Assembly: GCA_025999215.1 (NCBI GenBank)
Contig: AP024679.1
Coordinates: 293,645 to 357,644, forward strand
Length of the DNA: 64,000 nucleotides
Source of the DNA: Candidatus Dojkabacteria bacterium
Lineage (GTDB): Bacteria; Patescibacteriota; Dojkabacteria; J137
Reading direction: 5' to 3'
The notes below the pieces were generated by a model, which worked only from the letters and a program-made list of their open reading frames with translations, had not been told where the DNA came from and ran no database searches. Of the stretch, positions 4,897 to 61,126 are shown piece after piece (within the stretch, counting starts at the first letter, position 1; every line of letters begins with the position of its first letter). A program made the translations under genes and the position numbers.

Positions 4897-5562
4897 ATGG
4901 TAAAGACTCTTCATCTAACTTATTCCAAGAAATCTAAAAAAAATATACGTAAGGTTATTGGGCTTGCTTTAATTTTTGTTATTTTATCAACATTTGTGGC
5001 TTCATTTTTATATTTAACGCTGCCTTTTTGGCCAGAAATTAAATATAGAATTTCAAAAAGCGAAATAACAGAACTCGATGTAGAAGTATCGGATGAAACA
5101 GCAGAAAAATTGGGAATAAAGAAAACAAAGAATTATAAAGAAGCACAGATTCTTGATTCAAATTTGTTGATAATTCCAAAAATTGGAGTAAAAGCAAAAA
5201 TTTTAGAACATAGTGATTTATCAATTCTTGATGTTGAAGAGGGTGTTTGGAGAGAACCTTTTACCAATACGCCTGAAGATGAAGGTGGAAACACTGTTAT
5301 AGCAGGCCATAGATTTCAGTATTTACCACCTAACACTTCTACTTTTTATCATTTAGATAAATTAAAGTCTGGTGATAAAATTTTAGTAATTTGGGATAAA
5401 AAAGAATATATTTATGAAGTGCAGGATATTTTTGAAGTGGAGCCAAGTGATACATACATTAGAGATAATTCTGGTGAATCTTTATTAACACTTTATACTT
5501 GCACTCCATTAGGAAGTGAAGCAAGGAGATTGGTTGTGCGTGCTAAATTATTAAACAATTAA
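4897..5562 (+). CDS. Sortase-family transpeptidase
   Basis: N-terminal TM anchor, catalytic His context (VIAGHR), TLYTC active-site Cys motif (TLxTC) and downstream conserved Arg. Confidence 0.75.
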   Translation: MVKTLHLTYSKKSKKNIRKVIGLALIFVILSTFVASFLYLTLPFWPEIKYRISKSEITELDVEVSDETAEKLGIKKTKNYKEAQILDSNLLIIPKIGVKAKILEHSDLSILDVEEGVWREPFTNTPEDEGGNTVIAGHRFQYLPPNTSTFYHLDKLKSGDKILVIWDKKEYIYEVQDIFEVEPSDTYIRDNSGESLLTLYTCTPLGSEARRLVVRAKLLNN

Positions 5563-28716: not shown

Positions 28717-28793
28717 GCTCCTGTAGCTCAGTTGGTTAGAGCACGGTTCTTATAAAGCCGGGGTCAGTGGTTCGAGTCCACTCAGGAGTACCA
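28717..28793 (+). tRNA. tRNA-Ile (anticodon UAU), CCA encoded
   Basis: Cloverleaf: acceptor GCUCCUG/CAGGAGU; anticodon stem CGGUU/AGCCG with loop CUUAUAA (UAU); T-arm AGUGG-UUCGAGU-CCACU; 3' ACCA. Confidence 0.75.
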
Positions 28794-30170: not shown

Positions 30171-30245
30171 CGCGGGGTAGAGCAGTGGCAGCTCGTCGGG
30201 CTCATAACCCGAAGGTCGTTGGTTCGAATCCAACCCCCGCAACCA
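30171..30245 (+). tRNA. Initiator tRNA-fMet (CAU), CCA encoded
   Basis: Near-identical to E. coli tRNA-fMet: CGCGGGG...GCUCGUCGGGCUCAUAACCCGAAGGUCG...CCCCCGCAACCA, including the C1xA72 mismatch and the three G-C pairs in the anticodon stem. Confidence 0.9.
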
Positions 30246-30290: not shown

Positions 30291-30363
30291 TTTTATACAA
30301 ATATTCCGCCATTTTTAGTTTATAATTTTCAATTTTTTTGTTAAAATTAAAGAGTAATTTTGG

Positions 30364-30436
30364 CCAGAGTAGCTCAGTAGGTTAGAGCGTGGGATTCATA
30401 AACCCAAGGTCGGCAGTTCGATTCTGCCCTCTGGCA
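30364..30436 (+). tRNA. tRNA-Met (CAU), elongator type (could alternatively be a lysidine-type Ile2); no encoded CCA
   Basis: Acceptor GCCAGAG/CUCUGGC; D-arm GCUC...GAGC; anticodon loop UUCAUAA; T-arm GGCAG-UUCGAUU-CUGCC. Confidence 0.65.
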
Positions 30437-39946: not shown

Positions 39947-40084
39947 TTTAGAATTAGAAAAAATGTCAGTAATCAGCCATCAGGCTGATGATTGATATTT
40001 TGTAACGATCTTTAACAACTGAATAGAACGACATCATGATAAAAAAGGTTTTTTTGTCATGTGGGTAATTAAAATTACCAGAAA

Positions 40085-43088
<3,004 letters not shown>

Positions 43089-43237
43089 TGGTGAGCTTTG
43101 GTATATATTTTTGCCAAGATTCCACTCTTGGTAATGTTTATATACCAATTTTACCCTTGTTCGTTCTATTCAGTTTTTAGAGATTAAGTAATTTAAAAAT
43201 TCAATCACTAGGTGCAAGATTATTTAAGTAGTTTTGC

Positions 43238-56838: not shown

Positions 56839-59382
56839 ATGGAAAACAATGAAATTAATGGGTTCAAACGTTTAACCGAGAGTGCTAAAAGGGTGTTGAA
56901 AGATGCCTTCGAGTTGGCAGTCAGATTTGAATCAAAAGAGCTTAGGGCGATGCACATTTTTTATGTTCTCCTTTCAGACAGTGAGAGCTATTCTCATGAG
57001 GTTTTTGAACGACTTGGAGTTGATATTCCGAGTACACTAGAACAGTTAAAAAATGAAATCTCCAAAATTAAAAATTTGTCCAGAAGCGCAAGCAAAAGTT
57101 TATCTCAGCCTAAGCTTTCAGATGAAGTGAAAAATACTATTCAAGAGGCGTTTTTCATTGCTTCAAAATCGGGTTTTCAATATGTTGGCACAGCACATTT
57201 GTTATTAGCTATGTTTACGAATGATGAAATTAATTTGGTTAGTGATCTTAGAAAAATTGGAATTGGTTACGATAAAATAGAGAAGTTGCTTTATCAAATA
57301 GGAGCTTTTACGCCAGAACAATCCTACAAACCCAAATCAAAACCTAAATTTTCTTTGCCCTTACCTATGTTTGATCAGCCTGATTCCGACGAAGAGAATC
57401 GGTTTGTGCCTAATTTTTGTACAGATATGATTGAAGAATCTAAAAAAGGTAAATACATGGAAATTGTGGGGCGGGAGAAAGAAATCAAAAGACTTTTACA
57501 TATTTTATCAAGAAAGACTAAAAACAATCCGATTTTGGTAGGAGATGCTGGCGTAGGAAAAACGGCAATAGTTGAAGGACTTGCGAATATGATCGTTGAG
57601 GGTAATGTGCCGGCATCGTTTATGGATAAAAAAATATTAAGTTTGGATGTTGCTGGGATATTAGCTGGTGCTAGATTGAGGGGAGATGTAGAGGAAAGGG
57701 TAATTAAAATAATTGATAGTGTAATTGAAAGTGGCGATACAATTTTGTTCATTGATGAAATTCACATGATAGTAGGCGCTGGTTCTGGAGGCGGTAGGGA
57801 TTCGTTGGATATTGCTAATATTTTGAAACCTTATCTTACAAAATCAGACTTGAGCATAATTGGCGCTACAACTTATGATGAATATTCTAAATTCTTTGAA
57901 CCTGATGCGGCACTAACTAGACGATTTCAACCTATTTTCGTTGAAGAAATAGACATAGATAGCGCCAAACATGTAATGTACACTATTGCTAAAGATTTTG
58001 CTGATTATCATAAAGTAAAGATACAAAATGAAGCTATAGAAGAGAGTGTAGAGTTATCTGCAAAGTTTATTCAAGATAGATATTTGCCTGATAAAGCAAT
58101 TGATATTTTGGATGAAGCTGCAGCAAGTATTAAAATTGGGCGTGAAGTAGCAATTGAACCAGAATTAAGTAAACTAGGTGAAAAATTAATAAAAATTCAG
58201 GACAAGAAAAACCAAGCAATTAATGCGAACAATTTAAAAGAGGCATCAATGTACAAAAAACAAGAAGATATAATTACAAAAGAAATACAAGCAATAATTG
58301 AGGGTAAGAAAAAAGTAAAAAAAACGTATCCTAAAACAGTAACAGCTAAACTTATTCGAGATATTATAGTGGATTGGACATCCATACCTTTAGTTGCTAG
58401 CGATATTAGCGATAAAACTCTTAGAGATTTAGATAAAAGATTATCCAAAAGAGTTGTAGGCCAAACAAAGGCAGTTGGAAATGTAACTAAAGCAATTCAG
58501 CGAACTCATATAGGGTTAAATGATGGAAAAAGGCCGCTTGCTTCATTTTTGTTTTTGGGTCCAACTGGTGTTGGGAAAACAGAGCTTGCGAAAGCGCTGG
58601 CTTATGAACTTTTTGGGTCTGAAAATTTACTCAAGCAGGTTGATATGAGTGAGTTTATGGAGCAACATAGTGTTTCTAAATTGATTGGTTCGCCTCCTGG
58701 TTACATAGGTTTTCAAGAAGGAGGACAATTAACAACTTTTGTTAAACGTAAACCATATTGTGTAATTTTGTTTGATGAAATAGAAAAGGCTCACCCTGAT
58801 GTTTTGAATATTTTGCTTCAGATTTTGGAGGAAGGTCATTTAACAGACTCAAAGGGTAGTAAAGTTAGTTTTAAAAATACGATTATAATTTTGACTTCGA
58901 ATATTGGGGCAGAGGAAGTGGCAAATGATAATACTCTTGGTTTTGATATTGACATAGAGCGAAAAGAGGGTGGTGAAATTGATGAAGCGTTTGAAGAGAT
59001 GGAAGAAAAGCTTTTGGGCCAACTTCGTAAAACTCTCAGACCAGAGTTGTTGAATAGAATTGATTCTATAAATGTTTTCCGAGGTTTAAACAAAGAAGAT
59101 TGTTTGCAAATTTCAAAAAATCTTGTAGATCAGTTTATTTTAAGATTAGTAGAAAAGGGAATAGTTTTGAATGTATCTTCTGCAGTTGTTAGAAAAATTA
59201 ATGAAGAAGGATACAGTAAAGAGTATGGAGGTAGAAATATTAGAAGAAAGGTTCAAGAATTGCTGGAAGATGGGCTTGCACAATTTTTGATATCATCCAA
59301 AAATAAAAGAAATAAAAATGAAGTTTTAAAACTTCAAGCTTCTTTAGATAAAAATAATATAGTATTTTCTTTCGTTGATTAA
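56839..59382 (+). CDS. clpC: ClpC/ClpB-type Hsp100 chaperone-ATPase (Clp N-domain, D1, short middle region, D2)
   Basis: D1 Walker A VGDAGVGKTAIVEGLA and Walker B ILFIDEIHMIVGAG. D2 FLFLGPTGVGKTELAKALA, VILFDEIEKAHPDV, sensor-2 GGRNIRR. Confidence 0.85.
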   Translation: MENNEINGFKRLTESAKRVLKDAFELAVRFESKELRAMHIFYVLLSDSESYSHEVFERLGVDIPSTLEQLKNEISKIKNLSRSASKSLSQPKLSDEVKNTIQEAFFIASKSGFQYVGTAHLLLAMFTNDEINLVSDLRKIGIGYDKIEKLLYQIGAFTPEQSYKPKSKPKFSLPLPMFDQPDSDEENRFVPNFCTDMIEESKKGKYMEIVGREKEIKRLLHILSRKTKNNPILVGDAGVGKTAIVEGLANMIVEGNVPASFMDKKILSLDVAGILAGARLRGDVEERVIKIIDSVIESGDTILFIDEIHMIVGAGSGGGRDSLDIANILKPYLTKSDLSIIGATTYDEYSKFFEPDAALTRRFQPIFVEEIDIDSAKHVMYTIAKDFADYHKVKIQNEAIEESVELSAKFIQDRYLPDKAIDILDEAAASIKIGREVAIEPELSKLGEKLIKIQDKKNQAINANNLKEASMYKKQEDIITKEIQAIIEGKKKVKKTYPKTVTAKLIRDIIVDWTSIPLVASDISDKTLRDLDKRLSKRVVGQTKAVGNVTKAIQRTHIGLNDGKRPLASFLFLGPTGVGKTELAKALAYELFGSENLLKQVDMSEFMEQHSVSKLIGSPPGYIGFQEGGQLTTFVKRKPYCVILFDEIEKAHPDVLNILLQILEEGHLTDSKGSKVSFKNTIIILTSNIGAEEVANDNTLGFDIDIERKEGGEIDEAFEEMEEKLLGQLRKTLRPELLNRIDSINVFRGLNKEDCLQISKNLVDQFILRLVEKGIVLNVSSAVVRKINEEGYSKEYGGRNIRRKVQELLEDGLAQFLISSKNKRNKNEVLKLQASLDKNNIVFSFVD

Positions 59383-59478
59383 AATAATCAGAAGAAATTT
59401 TTAATTTACAAATAAATTGAAAAATAGGATTTGTATTTCTTTAAAGCTGTTTTCTATAAAAAAAACTTTACTATAGGG

Positions 59479-59507
59479 TTGACAAAAAAAATATTATAGG
59501 GTATAAT
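59479..59507 (+). promoter_or_regulatory. Consensus sigma-70-type promoter of the rho leader
   Basis: TTGACA - 17 nt - TATAAT. Confidence 0.55.
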
Positions 59508-59535
59508 ATAGCAGATCATTAAAAAAGTTATTAGT

Positions 59536-59696
59536 TAGTCCCAGAGTCTGGTTTGCGTACATCGACTACATTCTCTGAAGTTGAACTTACTGGACTCTCG
59601 GACTAGCTAATAATTTCAAAAGTTGTCTGGTCCCAGAGTCTAGTTTGCGTACAATCGACTGCAATCTCTCAGTTGAACTTACTGGACTCTCGGATT
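59536..59696 (+). ncRNA. Two tandem ~70-nt structured repeats in the rho 5' leader (unclassified cis-regulatory RNA)
   Basis: Unit 1 (59536-59607) and unit 2 (59629-59696) are about 85% identical. Each is closed by a 12-13-bp stem (UAGUCCCAGAGUC...GACUCUCGGACUA) around a conserved ~45-nt core (GUUUGCGUACAUCGACU-CAUUCUCUGAAGUUGAACUUACUG). Confidence 0.5.
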
Positions 59697-59833
59697 AGGT
59701 AACTTTTCTCCTTAAAGTTGATTTTTTAAATTAAACCTGTTATAGTTAGTTGGCTTTTGAGGTTCTCCTCGATTGTAGAAAGCTATTAAAATTTATTCCC
59801 ATGATGGACTTGTTTATTTATTAAATTATTCTT

Positions 59834-61126
59834 ATGCCAAAAAAGAAGGATTCAATTGCTGAGTCTACCAGTTTGAAAGAACTTGAAGCAATGACTTTGA
59901 CTGAGTTGAGAAAAATTGCTTCAGAACTTGAGATTAAAGATGCAGCTAATTATAAAAAAAGTGATTTGATTATAAAAATACTTGCAACTCAGACCAAAAA
60001 AGGAGGCAATATTTTTGCTGAAGGTTTTTTGGAGATTGTGAAAGACTCACACGGAGTATTAAGGTCTTTAACGATGTTGCCCGGTGAAAATGATGTTTAT
60101 GTATCAAGTTCTCAAATAAAAAGATTTAATTTAAGGCAAGGAGATTTTATTTCAGGACAAGCAAGGCCCCCAAAAGAAGGAGAAAGGTATTTGTCTTTAC
60201 TTAAAATAGAGGCAATAAATGGAGGTAGTCCAGACAAGGCTATTGCTCGACCTAATTTCAATCAATTAACTCCAATTTACCCTAATGAGCAAATTAAACT
60301 GGAAACTGATCAAAATACAATTTCTACAAGAATTATTGATTTATTATGTCCGATAGGAAAAGGACAGAGAGGTATGATAGTTGCGCCTCCAAAGGTTGGA
60401 AAAACTTGGTTGCTCAAAGATATTGCTAAAGGTATTGCAACTAACCATCCAGAAATCCATTTAATGGTTTTGTTGGTTGGTGAAAGACCAGAAGAAGTTA
60501 CAGATATGCAAAGATTTGTTCAGGGTGAAGTGATTGCGGCAAATTTTGACGAGCATCCAGAAGCTCATACCAGAATTGCTGAAATGGCAGTTGAAAGAGC
60601 TAAAAGATTGGTTGAACAAGATCAAAAGGACGTAGTAATTTTGATGGATAGTATTACCAGACTTGCTAGAGCTTACAATATCACTGCGCCACCATCCGGA
60701 AGAACTTTGTCTGGTGGTTTTGATCCAGTAGCAATTTACCCACCAAAGAAATTTTTTGGTGCTGCACGAAACATTGAGCAAGGAGGAAGTTTAACAATCA
60801 TCGCAACAGCACTCGTTGATACTGGTAGTAAAATGGATGATGTGATTTTTGAAGAGTTTAAGGGAACTGGAAACATGGAGGTGAAACTAGATAGAAAACT
60901 TGCAGAACGCAGAATTTTTCCTGCTATTGATGTTACTGCATCCTATACTCGAAATGAAGATAGGCTATTATCTCCAGAAGTTTTAGCTCAAACATGGAAA
61001 ATTGTTCGAATGCTTGATACGATTGGCAGTGAAACAAAAGAAAATCCAACTCAGGTTTTGATTGATAGATTGAAAAAAACAAAAAATAATGAAGAATTTT
61101 TGGCAACCATGCATGAGCCTATGTGA
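59834..61126 (+). CDS. rho: Transcription termination factor Rho
   Basis: N-terminal RNA-binding domain, Walker [19 protein letters not shown], ...[15 protein letters not shown]..., Q- and R-loops. Confidence 0.9.

Follow-up and report, generated by a model that had tools for sequence, protein, structure and literature searches.

A conserved hairpin RNA ahead of rho in Dojkabacteria and its occurrence in phages

The nut site combines a boxA sequence with the boxB hairpin, which is 15 nt long and carries a GNRA-like pentaloop, and the rrn leader has the order boxB-boxA-boxC. The layout pR-nutR-tR1-O is that of lambdoid phages. The HK022 put RNA is a factor-independent antiterminator that binds RNA polymerase, and its two different stem-loops act together. 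The rho leaders of E. coli, Salmonella and B. subtilis serve Rho-dependent autoregulation; they are long, poorly structured and rut-containing, with no conserved hairpin family, and the Salmonella rho leader is protected by the small RNA SraL. To our knowledge, the control of Rho levels is understood in just a handful of model bacteria, and not at all in the candidate phyla radiation (CPR). Cellular genes regulated by boxA include suhB and rpsJ; the suhB boxA stands alone near the start codon, where it promotes repression and, subsequently, termination by Rho (Baniulyte et al. 2017, PMC5725501). Orphan leader motifs with intrinsic terminators, such as drum, skipping-rope and DUF3800-I, have also been described (Weinberg et al. 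2017, PMC5737381).

Here we analysed a 64-kb stretch of DNA (the window) in which two direct repeats with a spacing of 92 nt occupy the gap between a clpC/clpB-type ATPase gene and rho. The features of the locus are as follows.

56839-59382: clpC/clpB-type ATPase gene, at the far flank of the hairpin region, opposite rho
59472-59478, + strand: TATAGG box 1 (CTATAGGG), abutting the P1 -35 hexamer on its upstream side
59479-59507, + strand: promoter P1, TTGACA-17-TATAAT, consensus match 12/12
59495-59501, + strand: TATAGG box 2, inside P1
59514-59527, + strand: boxA-like sequence GAUCAUUAAAAAAG, about +1 to +14 of the predicted P1 transcript, abutting hairpin 1
59525-59616, + strand: hairpin unit 1, core 59539-59602, covariance-model score 90.8 bits
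59617-59708, + strand: hairpin unit 2, core 59631-59694, covariance-model score 77.8 bits
59703-59713, + strand: U/C-rich tail CUUUUCUCCUU, overlapping the 3' end of hairpin 2 and extending past it
59718-59746, + strand: candidate promoter P2, TTGATT-17-TATAGT with a TG extension, 88 nt 5' of the rho ATG
59834-61126, + strand: rho, a 430-aa ORF, the gene downstream of the hairpins

Homologues of this Rho carry the domains Rho_N, Rho_RNA_bind and ATP-synt_ab, and the closest relatives, 73-93% identical, are named transcription termination factor Rho from Candidatus Dojkabacteria (WS6) or Patescibacteria. Nowhere else in the 64-kb window do the 24-nt arms of the repeats, GTCCCAGAGTCTRGTTTGCGTACA and AGTTGAACTTACTGGACTCTCGGA, occur (0 expected by chance). 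In 65 of 74 aligned columns the 73-nt cores (59536-59608 and 59628-59700) agree, which is 88% identity, and the identity between the units drops to 78% once the outer stems are counted. A tRNA/tmRNA scan gave no match at the hairpin locus.

Each unit is predicted to fold into one long hairpin, of -40.8 kcal/mol for unit 1 over 59525-59616 (z -8.2 against dinucleotide shuffles) and -38.1 kcal/mol for unit 2 over 59618-59707 (z -6.6, likewise). The tandem pair of conserved units reported in the preliminary description of this locus is therefore real, with nearly identical cores that both fold as hairpins. The closing helix, given there as 12-13 bp, is present too, but it comprises about 27 pairs, about twice that length. 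Per unit, the helix contains approximately 25-27 pairs and is interrupted by a single C-C mismatch, C59542/C59599 in unit 1 and C59634/C59691 in unit 2. The cores reach -27 kcal/mol on the + strand, against -22 and -20 kcal/mol on the opposite strand. An attenuator built from the tandem units (pairings 1:2, 2:3 and 3:4) was considered and rejected. The 2:3 pairing has an energy of -28.7 kcal/mol (z -5.6) in the window, but in L001, L087 and L085 it is no better than in shuffles, indicating a by-product of the repeat and not a conserved feature.

The rho loci of relatives (L001, L081-L088 and L110-L113; Rho 73-93% identical) were selected on the identity of the Rho protein, with no use of the motif. 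A hairpin is found 5' of rho and on the same strand in 14/14 protein-retrieved Dojkabacteria-type rho loci, in one or two copies. Tandem copies do not define the element, 8 of these 14 loci carrying a single copy. Duplication is found mainly in the subclade of the window (Rho at least about 79% identical); the tandem copies are identical in L081 and L088, and old and divergent in L001, L087, L085 and L092, so that duplication looks repeated or concerted. A contig search with the Rho protein pulled rho from many phyla via conserved ATPase peptides, with L001 as the only Dojkabacteria locus; the useful loci beside it were L063 and two Saccharibacteria loci. In addition, a degenerate DNA pattern retrieved 21 metagenome loci, 16 of which have rho 170-1100 nt downstream of the hairpin on the same strand, and one of which ends at a contig edge. 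The covariance model R1, built on 34 instances, detected two divergent hairpin copies in L063, whose Rho is 65% identical. It found no further copy anywhere in the 64 kb of the window or in 10-20 kb of flanking DNA in relatives, and no match in the two Saccharibacteria rho loci or in the 22 non-CPR rho loci covered. By the same scan, the hairpin is absent from the leader, spacer and flanks of the rRNA operon in the window.

The conserved hairpin is delimited by an outermost stem, P0, of about 11 bp, which is free in sequence and shows strong covariation. Above P0, a UCC/GGA step leads to a 1x1 internal loop, the 5' side of which is always C and the 3' side C, U or A, never G. The inner helix of 10 bp (AGAGUCUGGU/ACUGGACUCU) is near-invariant and contains a fixed U-G pair followed by G-U or A-U. 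It carries the conserved loop UUYGCGUACA...ACUUAC, which includes UUUGCGUACA; the ACUU on its 3' side reads A[UC]AA in L110-L113, and in the lineage of L063 and L115 the loop differs substantially with the helix retained. The apical hairpin (stem P2) varies in length and sequence, covaries, and is missing in L101. As for the core proposed earlier from the window, GUUYGCGUACA and ACUUACUG are indeed kept in relatives, but the stretch between them is this variable, covarying hairpin.

RNAalifold and pair counting gave the same structure. Covariation was evaluated on 18 instances from the 14 protein-retrieved rho loci, that is, the window and 13 fetched loci in which rho was found by protein only, so the set is free of search-pattern bias. 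In these instances 94.7% of the cells are paired, both partners vary in 22/32 pairs, and covariation scores 0.635 compared to 0.20 in shuffles, none of 500 shuffles being as high; slid registers give at most 46% paired. The set of 34 sequences gives the same covariation picture. The covariance-model scores are 59-97 bits on the + strand and 14-38 bits on the - strand. The fixed G-U pairs together with this strand asymmetry of the model scores indicate an RNA on the rho strand. The hairpin is a conserved structured RNA, with its pairs kept by compensatory changes on one strand. Two adjacent near-identical copies with terminal inverted repeats might also be produced by a recent local duplication without function or by a miniature mobile repeat, an explanation to which we give next to no chance, because the same locus recurs down to 65-73% Rho identity with compensatory changes and is single-copy in many genomes. 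Nor does it behave as a MITE/REP-like dispersed repeat in the sequence covered, where two adjacent copies occur in the 64 kb and none elsewhere in the 10-20-kb flanks of relatives. The conservation upstream of rho in relatives, with covariation, contradicts a simple duplication.

In the window, the 5' half of the motif is able to pair over 8 + 6 bp with H95 of the 23S rRNA (42852-42877), a lead that came from 8-mer matches. A mimic or antisense of the sarcin-ricin loop was nevertheless rejected for want of covariation: in L087 and L089 the H95 stems are different and carry a GCAA loop while the motif is unchanged, and the single variable loop base anti-correlates, so that the pairing is taken as a coincidence.

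The preliminary description recognised no known family, and database searches agree. A search of 59380-59860 against Rfam 15 returned no family at the gathering threshold and nothing relevant at E up to 10. The nearest match, mir-361 (23.9 bits against a threshold of 70), was rejected, since it arises from pairing between the two units (3' arm of the first, 5' arm of the second). Rfam searches on five plus three related loci gave nothing relevant either, with no match in the homologous regions of L063, L097, L100, L103, L105, L095 and L102, and no description of the hairpin motif was found in the literature searched. The identities of 6S, SRP or Y RNA were rejected as well, because separate hairpins are predicted and the relevant Rfam models gave no match; a 'UGGUCC' resemblance to Y RNA falls in the variable outer stem. 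Compared to a nut-type boxB, the hairpin is about 90 nt long and of another architecture, and no N-like gene was identified. The hairpin is a new RNA family, tentatively placed among the structured leader RNAs acting on transcription termination.

Upstream of the hairpins, the perfect TTGACA-N17-TATAAT promoter noted previously is present as P1, and relatives have a counterpart with consensus matches at the same position. The two TATAGG boxes are 23 bp apart, one directly upstream of each P1 hexamer (ACTATAGGnnTTGACA ... TTATAGGGTATAAT). This arrangement occurs a single time in the 64-kb window, and the pair ACTATAGG..TTGAC ... TTATAGGGTATAAT is kept in 26/28 loci; the boxes may be an operator or a promoter-strength element. 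The predicted transcript starts with the boxA-like sequence, written G[AU]UCUUU[U]AAAAA across loci. The pattern G[AU]UCUUU[AUC]A[ACU]A, allowing up to 2 substitutions, is found 6-8 nt past the -10 hexamer in 19/28 loci, against a background of 8% of random 32-nt segments, and is missing or weak in 9/28 loci, for example L101, L103 and L110. In the window, the boxA-like sequence resembles the boxA of the rRNA spacer (GAUCUUUAACAA, 40007-40018), and the published boxA consensus is GYTCTTTAANA (PMC5725501). From its sequence, we infer that the element might bind NusB/NusE; given how near it lies to the predicted start, a role as part of the promoter or of the initial transcribed sequence is an alternative.

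Downstream of the conserved hairpin, a further conserved hairpin resembling a terminator, GGGGUCGG-UYGGGGCAGUR-CCGAUCCC, leads into a U run in the deeper Dojkabacteria lineages (L093, L101, L102, L106, L107, L110-L113, L063, L097, L103 and L105). A variable hairpin lies between the two, and a terminator scan calls the element in L111 (2812-2840, then TTTTT) and L113. At 8 of 13 such loci, the 5' arm and loop of the terminator have a complementary strand 27-53 nt upstream, beyond shuffles (z -1.8 to -4.7), and the predicted minimum-energy folds often favour this antiterminator-like alternative. Such a strand and the terminator would form the pattern expected of a terminator/antiterminator switch. 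The antiterminator-like strand begins 1-25 nt past the conserved hairpin without overlap, competition between it and the hairpin's own strands was looked for and not found, and the predicted leader fold consists of two or three separate hairpins. The deeper lineages have, immediately behind the terminator and ahead of rho, the promoter-like sequence TTGACA-17-TATACT (11/12).

The subclade of the window lacks a separate conserved terminator, and the last hairpin is followed by the U/C-rich tail; similar tails (UUUCUUC-like) follow the last hairpin in close relatives that lack a separate terminator. The terminator scan of 59300-59900 called no terminator, hairpin 2 and its tail being passed over because the hairpin loop exceeds the limit of the scan. 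Judged by its sequence, the tail is a possible weak terminator tract, and the A-U-rich stem base before it makes for a poor intrinsic terminator. The best promoter-like site in this subclade is located 19-24 nt past the last hairpin core in 9 loci. Our first reading had placed the hairpins in a 5' UTR of rho of about 320 nt. The P2-like site between the hairpins and rho, whose position is conserved in relatives, together with the terminator before it in most of them, revises this: the hairpins belong to an upstream P1 unit and would be part of a rho leader only in read-through transcripts.

The hairpin is also kept in three related loci in which rho is not the downstream gene. In L097, L103 and L105, P1, the boxA-like sequence (missing or weak in L103 by the 28-locus pattern test), the hairpin, the terminator and a P2-like site precede a small RHH-like ORF, for which Pfam gives a weak, sub-threshold match to NikA-like. 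The neighbourhood is Dojkabacteria-like, with clpC and radA upstream and ATP-grasp, 7TM-transglutaminase and L7/L12 genes downstream.

These observations bear on a leader that senses Rho itself, either by Rho-dependent termination or by stripping of the antiterminator so that the terminator forms, with the hairpins as structural punctuation. It is common for rho to be autoregulated via its leader (PMC12360218), and C exceeds G in the last 120 nt before rho in many relatives (11.7% C and 1.7% G in L088, 19.2% and 5.8% in L112), whereas the 5' region of the window itself is richer in G than in C. Since Rho binds unstructured C-rich RNA and not long helices, the invariant helix sequence is left unexplained and the element is kept without rho downstream, we regard a Rho-sensing attenuator as highly improbable.

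The terminator with its antiterminator-like alternative in most lineages, the conserved internal-loop nucleotides between covarying stems, and the presence of tandem copies in part of the genomes, also seen for certain known classes, would suit a riboswitch for a metabolite or ion, single or tandem, that controls termination before rho. A riboswitch-like element was also suggested in the preliminary description, but the most invariant positions are paired, with the most conserved nucleotides lying in a helix, and the loop is much changed in the lineage of L063 and L115 with the helix kept. The aptamer strands do not overlap the antiterminator strand, and the phylogenetic range is narrow. No association with metabolism or transport genes was found: the downstream genes are rho, the RHH-like ORF, phage or mobile-element replication genes and others, rho is the sole host gene, and the same element heads phage replication and recombination operons. 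We therefore consider a riboswitch very unlikely; the other role suggested at the outset, regulatory and probably protein-binding, is plausible.

Homologues of the hairpin occur in mobile elements and phages. In L100, a homologue of 59.5 bits lies between two ORFs of a mobile element encoding a Prim-Pol/PriCT/DnaB-like protein and an SLT lysozyme. The viral contig L120 (IMG/VR) has a hairpin of 49.9 bits (E 2e-10) 10 nt before an ORF and about 60 nt past a TTGACA-17-TATAGT site, adjoining an Erf-like gene. A second IMG/VR viral contig, L115, carries a divergent hairpin of 33 bits in the order TTGACA-17-TAGTAT, boxA-like GAUCUUCCAAAAA, hairpin, exact terminator element and replication-initiation gene, with RecT and exonuclease genes on the divergent arm; this layout resembles pR-nutR-tR1-O of lambda. 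In the rho loci with a separate terminator, as in L115, the hairpin is positioned between promoter and terminator. In mobile elements, the distance to the next ORF start is 10-20 nt, or the hairpin lies between cistrons, and a terminator of its own is at times missing (L100 and L120). Strict Dojkabacteria-type DNA patterns gave 0 matches in viral contigs, and a looser pattern gave 11 loci, only L115 and L120 of which were confirmed by the covariance model. BLASTN of 59470-59750 returned a single phage match, trivial and A+T-rich, and no plasmid match. The terminator copies in viral contigs were also considered as phage attachment sites, which was rejected because no integrase is nearby and the elements lie at operon starts.

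The placement in mobile elements is relevant to two further explanations. The first is a free-standing small RNA gene of about 200 nt, from P1 to the terminator, that acts in trans as a protein sponge or partner and merely lies beside rho. Its own consensus promoter, the terminator in most lineages, a second promoter for rho and the retention of the RNA without rho downstream in L097, L103 and L105 agree with such a gene, as does the strong conservation of helix and loop, which is known from protein-binding small RNAs. However, the hairpin is always on the same strand directly before a downstream gene, in mobile elements it is found 10-20 nt before ORFs or between cistrons and at times terminator-less, an antiterminator-like complement of the terminator would be needless, and the boxA-like 5' end is a cis-acting signal. 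A small RNA gene is therefore unlikely. The second is a processing or stability element of the RNase III type, in which the helix would be cleaved, or would serve as a 5' cap, to set the stability or translation of the rho or phage mRNA. Intercistronic sites of the T7 early mRNA and the lambda N leader are the cases for comparison, and phage RNase III signals consist of a lower stem, an internal loop and an upper stem. By analogy, the long near-perfect helix with a conserved internal mismatch might be read as such a signal, and the intercistronic or pre-ORF placement in mobile elements would fit. This explanation is quite unlikely, as the conservation of the inner helix and loop is far above the usual needs of a substrate, nothing similar flanks the rRNAs in the same window, a place where RNase III sites would be expected, and the upper hairpin is fully lost in L101.

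Based on the conservation of sequence and structure, the strand, the genomic architecture and the occurrence in phages, we tentatively propose, at somewhat less than an even chance, that the hairpins are a cis-acting leader for nut- or put-like antitermination or for factor-dependent attenuation, which sets the read-through from P1 into rho. In this proposal, transcription would start at the strong promoter P1, and the first 14 nt or so of the RNA would resemble boxA, the NusB/NusE site of antitermination systems. The hairpin or hairpins would follow directly, and then a termination signal, which would be the conserved intrinsic terminator in most Dojkabacteria, in many with a competing antiterminator strand, and only the last hairpin with its U/C-rich tail in the subclade of the window; P2 and then rho would come after it. 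The boxA-like sequence and hairpin would act on the emerging RNA like a phage nut or put site. The recogniser may be a host macromolecule, namely RNA polymerase itself, Nus factors or another protein, which would read the invariant inner helix with its never-paired C, the tandem G-U pairs and the conserved loop. Recognition would settle the fate of polymerases coming from P1, either a halt at the terminator or passage into rho, so that P1-driven expression of rho could be set separately from the basal P2 route. In the phages of these bacteria, this module would stand in front of early or replication operons.

Both the invariant helix, with its unpaired C and tandem wobble pairs, and the gene contexts point to recognition by a macromolecule, and a macromolecular effector fits better than a metabolite. 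The presence of the same element in host and phage argues for either no phage-specific factor or a host factor. That P1 is transcribed and that the boxA-like sequence works as a boxA are parts of the proposal that we infer, as are the nature of the effector and whether it raises or lowers expression. Several points count against a nut- or put-like reading: antitermination ahead of rho is contrary to the usual autoregulation of rho by Rho-dependent attenuation, and a promoter, a terminator and a second promoter are also the layout of a free-standing small RNA gene. The weak or missing boxA-like sequence in 9/28 loci, the lack of a separate conserved terminator in the subclade of the window, the retention of the RNA ahead of an RHH-like ORF in L097, L103 and L105, and the negative result on competition between the hairpin's strands and the antiterminator strand weigh on the same side. 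A second conserved hairpin, with a GGGGCAGUG loop, is found upstream of rho in Dojkabacteria and Saccharibacteria alike. An extended and, as a whole, unlikely version of the proposal is that the host encodes a processive antitermination RNA that renders polymerase resistant to termination, including that by Rho, and so sets the Rho level in the CPR, that phages have captured it to drive their early or replication operons, and that the GGGGCAGUG-loop hairpin is the regulated terminator. If a processive antiterminator proves true, it would be the first case in cells, outside rRNA, of an antiterminator RNA with control over the termination factor itself.

The locus is of interest for its position before a termination factor gene in an under-studied radiation, for the sharing with phages and for the coupled second conserved hairpin. 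It presents a compact, sequence-defined RNA module common to host rho and phage early operons. As an antiterminator or attenuator, the module would link Nus and Rho biology, phage takeover and Rho homeostasis in little-studied bacteria and add a new RNA family to the databases; as a small RNA or processing site, it would still be a new conserved RNA of these organisms.

Similar to the rho leaders of E. coli, Salmonella and B. subtilis, the regulatory region lies directly 5' of rho, and termination before the coding region is the likely control point; in contrast to them, an intrinsic terminator and an extra proximal rho promoter are predicted here. The boxA-like sequence is comparable to that of suhB in that a transcription-factor gene, not an rRNA operon, carries it in its leader; it differs in lying over 300 nt upstream, with a conserved hairpin coupled to it. 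With the orphan motifs drum, skipping-rope and DUF3800-I, the element shares a conserved hairpin-type structure, a terminator on its 3' side and a narrow phylogenetic range; those motifs differ in sequence and structure, and all are Rfam families, none of which matches here.

Compared to the HK022 put RNA, the element is likewise a cis-acting structured RNA of about 70-90 nt between promoter and terminators, with one or two stem-loops containing conserved helical irregularities. Unlike in put, a single hairpin suffices in many genomes, and the comparison is one of likeness rather than of claimed homology in sequence or structure. The differences from nut are that the hairpin is about 90 nt long, with an internal mismatch and a large loop, that we know of no N-like protein for it, and that it is host-encoded ahead of rho and absent from the rRNA operon leader and spacer of the window. 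In the window, the boxA-like sequence resembles the organism's own rRNA-spacer boxA, while 9 of 28 loci have no clear boxA-like sequence. Where all the parts are present, as in lambdoid nut regions and rrn leaders, a promoter, a boxA-like sequence, a conserved hairpin, a terminator and the downstream genes follow one another in this order, and in L115, as in the lambdoid phages, the hairpin heads a phage early or replication operon.

The promoter ahead of rho, P1 (TTGACA-17-TATAAT, window 59479-59507), carries two TATAGG boxes in direct orientation, 23 bp apart, each lying directly 5' of one of the promoter hexamers:

59472-59478, first TATAGG box
59495-59501, second TATAGG box

This paired arrangement was found once in the window, and paired boxes occur at equivalent positions in 26 of the 28 related loci. 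The pair could be an operator for some regulator, or it could be an element setting promoter strength. The sequence ACTATAGG is also reminiscent of the ends of T7-type promoters, a resemblance that is probably coincidental.

The boxA-like sequence at the start of the predicted P1 transcript was referred to the boxA of the window's own 16S-23S spacer. Downstream of tRNA-Ile and tRNA-Ala, the spacer (39955-40018) contains a boxB-like hairpin followed by the canonical boxA:

39955-40018, spacer segment with the boxB-like hairpin AUCAGCC-AUCA-GGCUGAU
40007-40018, canonical boxA, GAUCUUUAACAA

A further conserved RNA element, distinct from the P1 leader hairpin, was noted among the loci fetched for comparison (L numbers). 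This hairpin, whose loop of 11 nt reads N-Y-GGGGCAGU-R, is located upstream of rho in Dojkabacteria and Saccharibacteria alike and also occurs in phage contigs. Its positions are:

L008 3716-3748, hairpin, Saccharibacteria
L056 3873-3905, hairpin, Saccharibacteria
L063 3872-3897, hairpin, Dojkabacteria type
L093, L097, L101-L103, L105-L107 and L110-L113, hairpin, Dojkabacteria type
L114 10811-10834, hairpin, IMG/VR contig
L115 2300-2323, minus strand, hairpin, IMG/VR contig

The stem covaries, being GGGGUCGG/CCGAUCCC in Dojkabacteria and GGUAGC/GCUAUC in Saccharibacteria, and the two IMG/VR phage contigs carry the hairpin as an exact copy. A terminator-like U run follows it in Dojkabacteria, whereas none follows the Saccharibacteria version. 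The window itself is without this hairpin, and nothing similar was found within about 700 nt 5' of rho in the 76 remaining genome_contigs loci (75 non-CPR loci and L001).

In three related metagenome loci, the block of rho, M23-peptidase and ndk is gone from its usual place, and the leader is followed by a small ORF starting MPR(Q/K)QIKLSVD, whose RHH/NikA-like match is weak. Examples are:

L097 5353-5766, reverse-oriented, small ORF with the weak match
L103 2287-2589, small ORF with the weak match

In Dojkabacteria, many Rho proteins have lengths of 470-575 aa and carry low-complexity N-terminal extensions, as seen in the upstream part of the rho ORFs of L091, L093, L098, L106 and L108 and in the Rho homologues P0061-P0073; L091 shows a Q/N-rich stretch containing runs of N. 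The Rho of the window has 430 aa and no such extension.

Among the window's stable RNAs, tRNA-Ile with anticodon UAU (28717-28793) adjoins two CAU-anticodon tRNA genes (30171-30245 and 30363-30436); reading of AUA by such a tRNA-Ile is uncommon among bacteria. The tmRNA match (1608-2064) spans 457 nt against a model of 374 positions, and the 23S rRNA (40079-43092) has insertions relative to the bacterial model, including one of about 65 nt near 40365 and another of about 26 nt near 40460. Its sarcin-ricin loop (H95, 42858-42871) is AGUACGCGAGGACC, and that of two other Dojkabacteria is AGUACGCAAGGACC (L087, about 385-398; L089, about 5216-5229), so that GCGA or GCAA replaces the GAGA tetraloop. 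These Dojkabacteria have C at the position of E. coli A2660 (window 42864). Elsewhere the loop is near-universally AGUACGAGAGGACC, and it is contacted by EF-G and EF-Tu, making a change at this site unusual.
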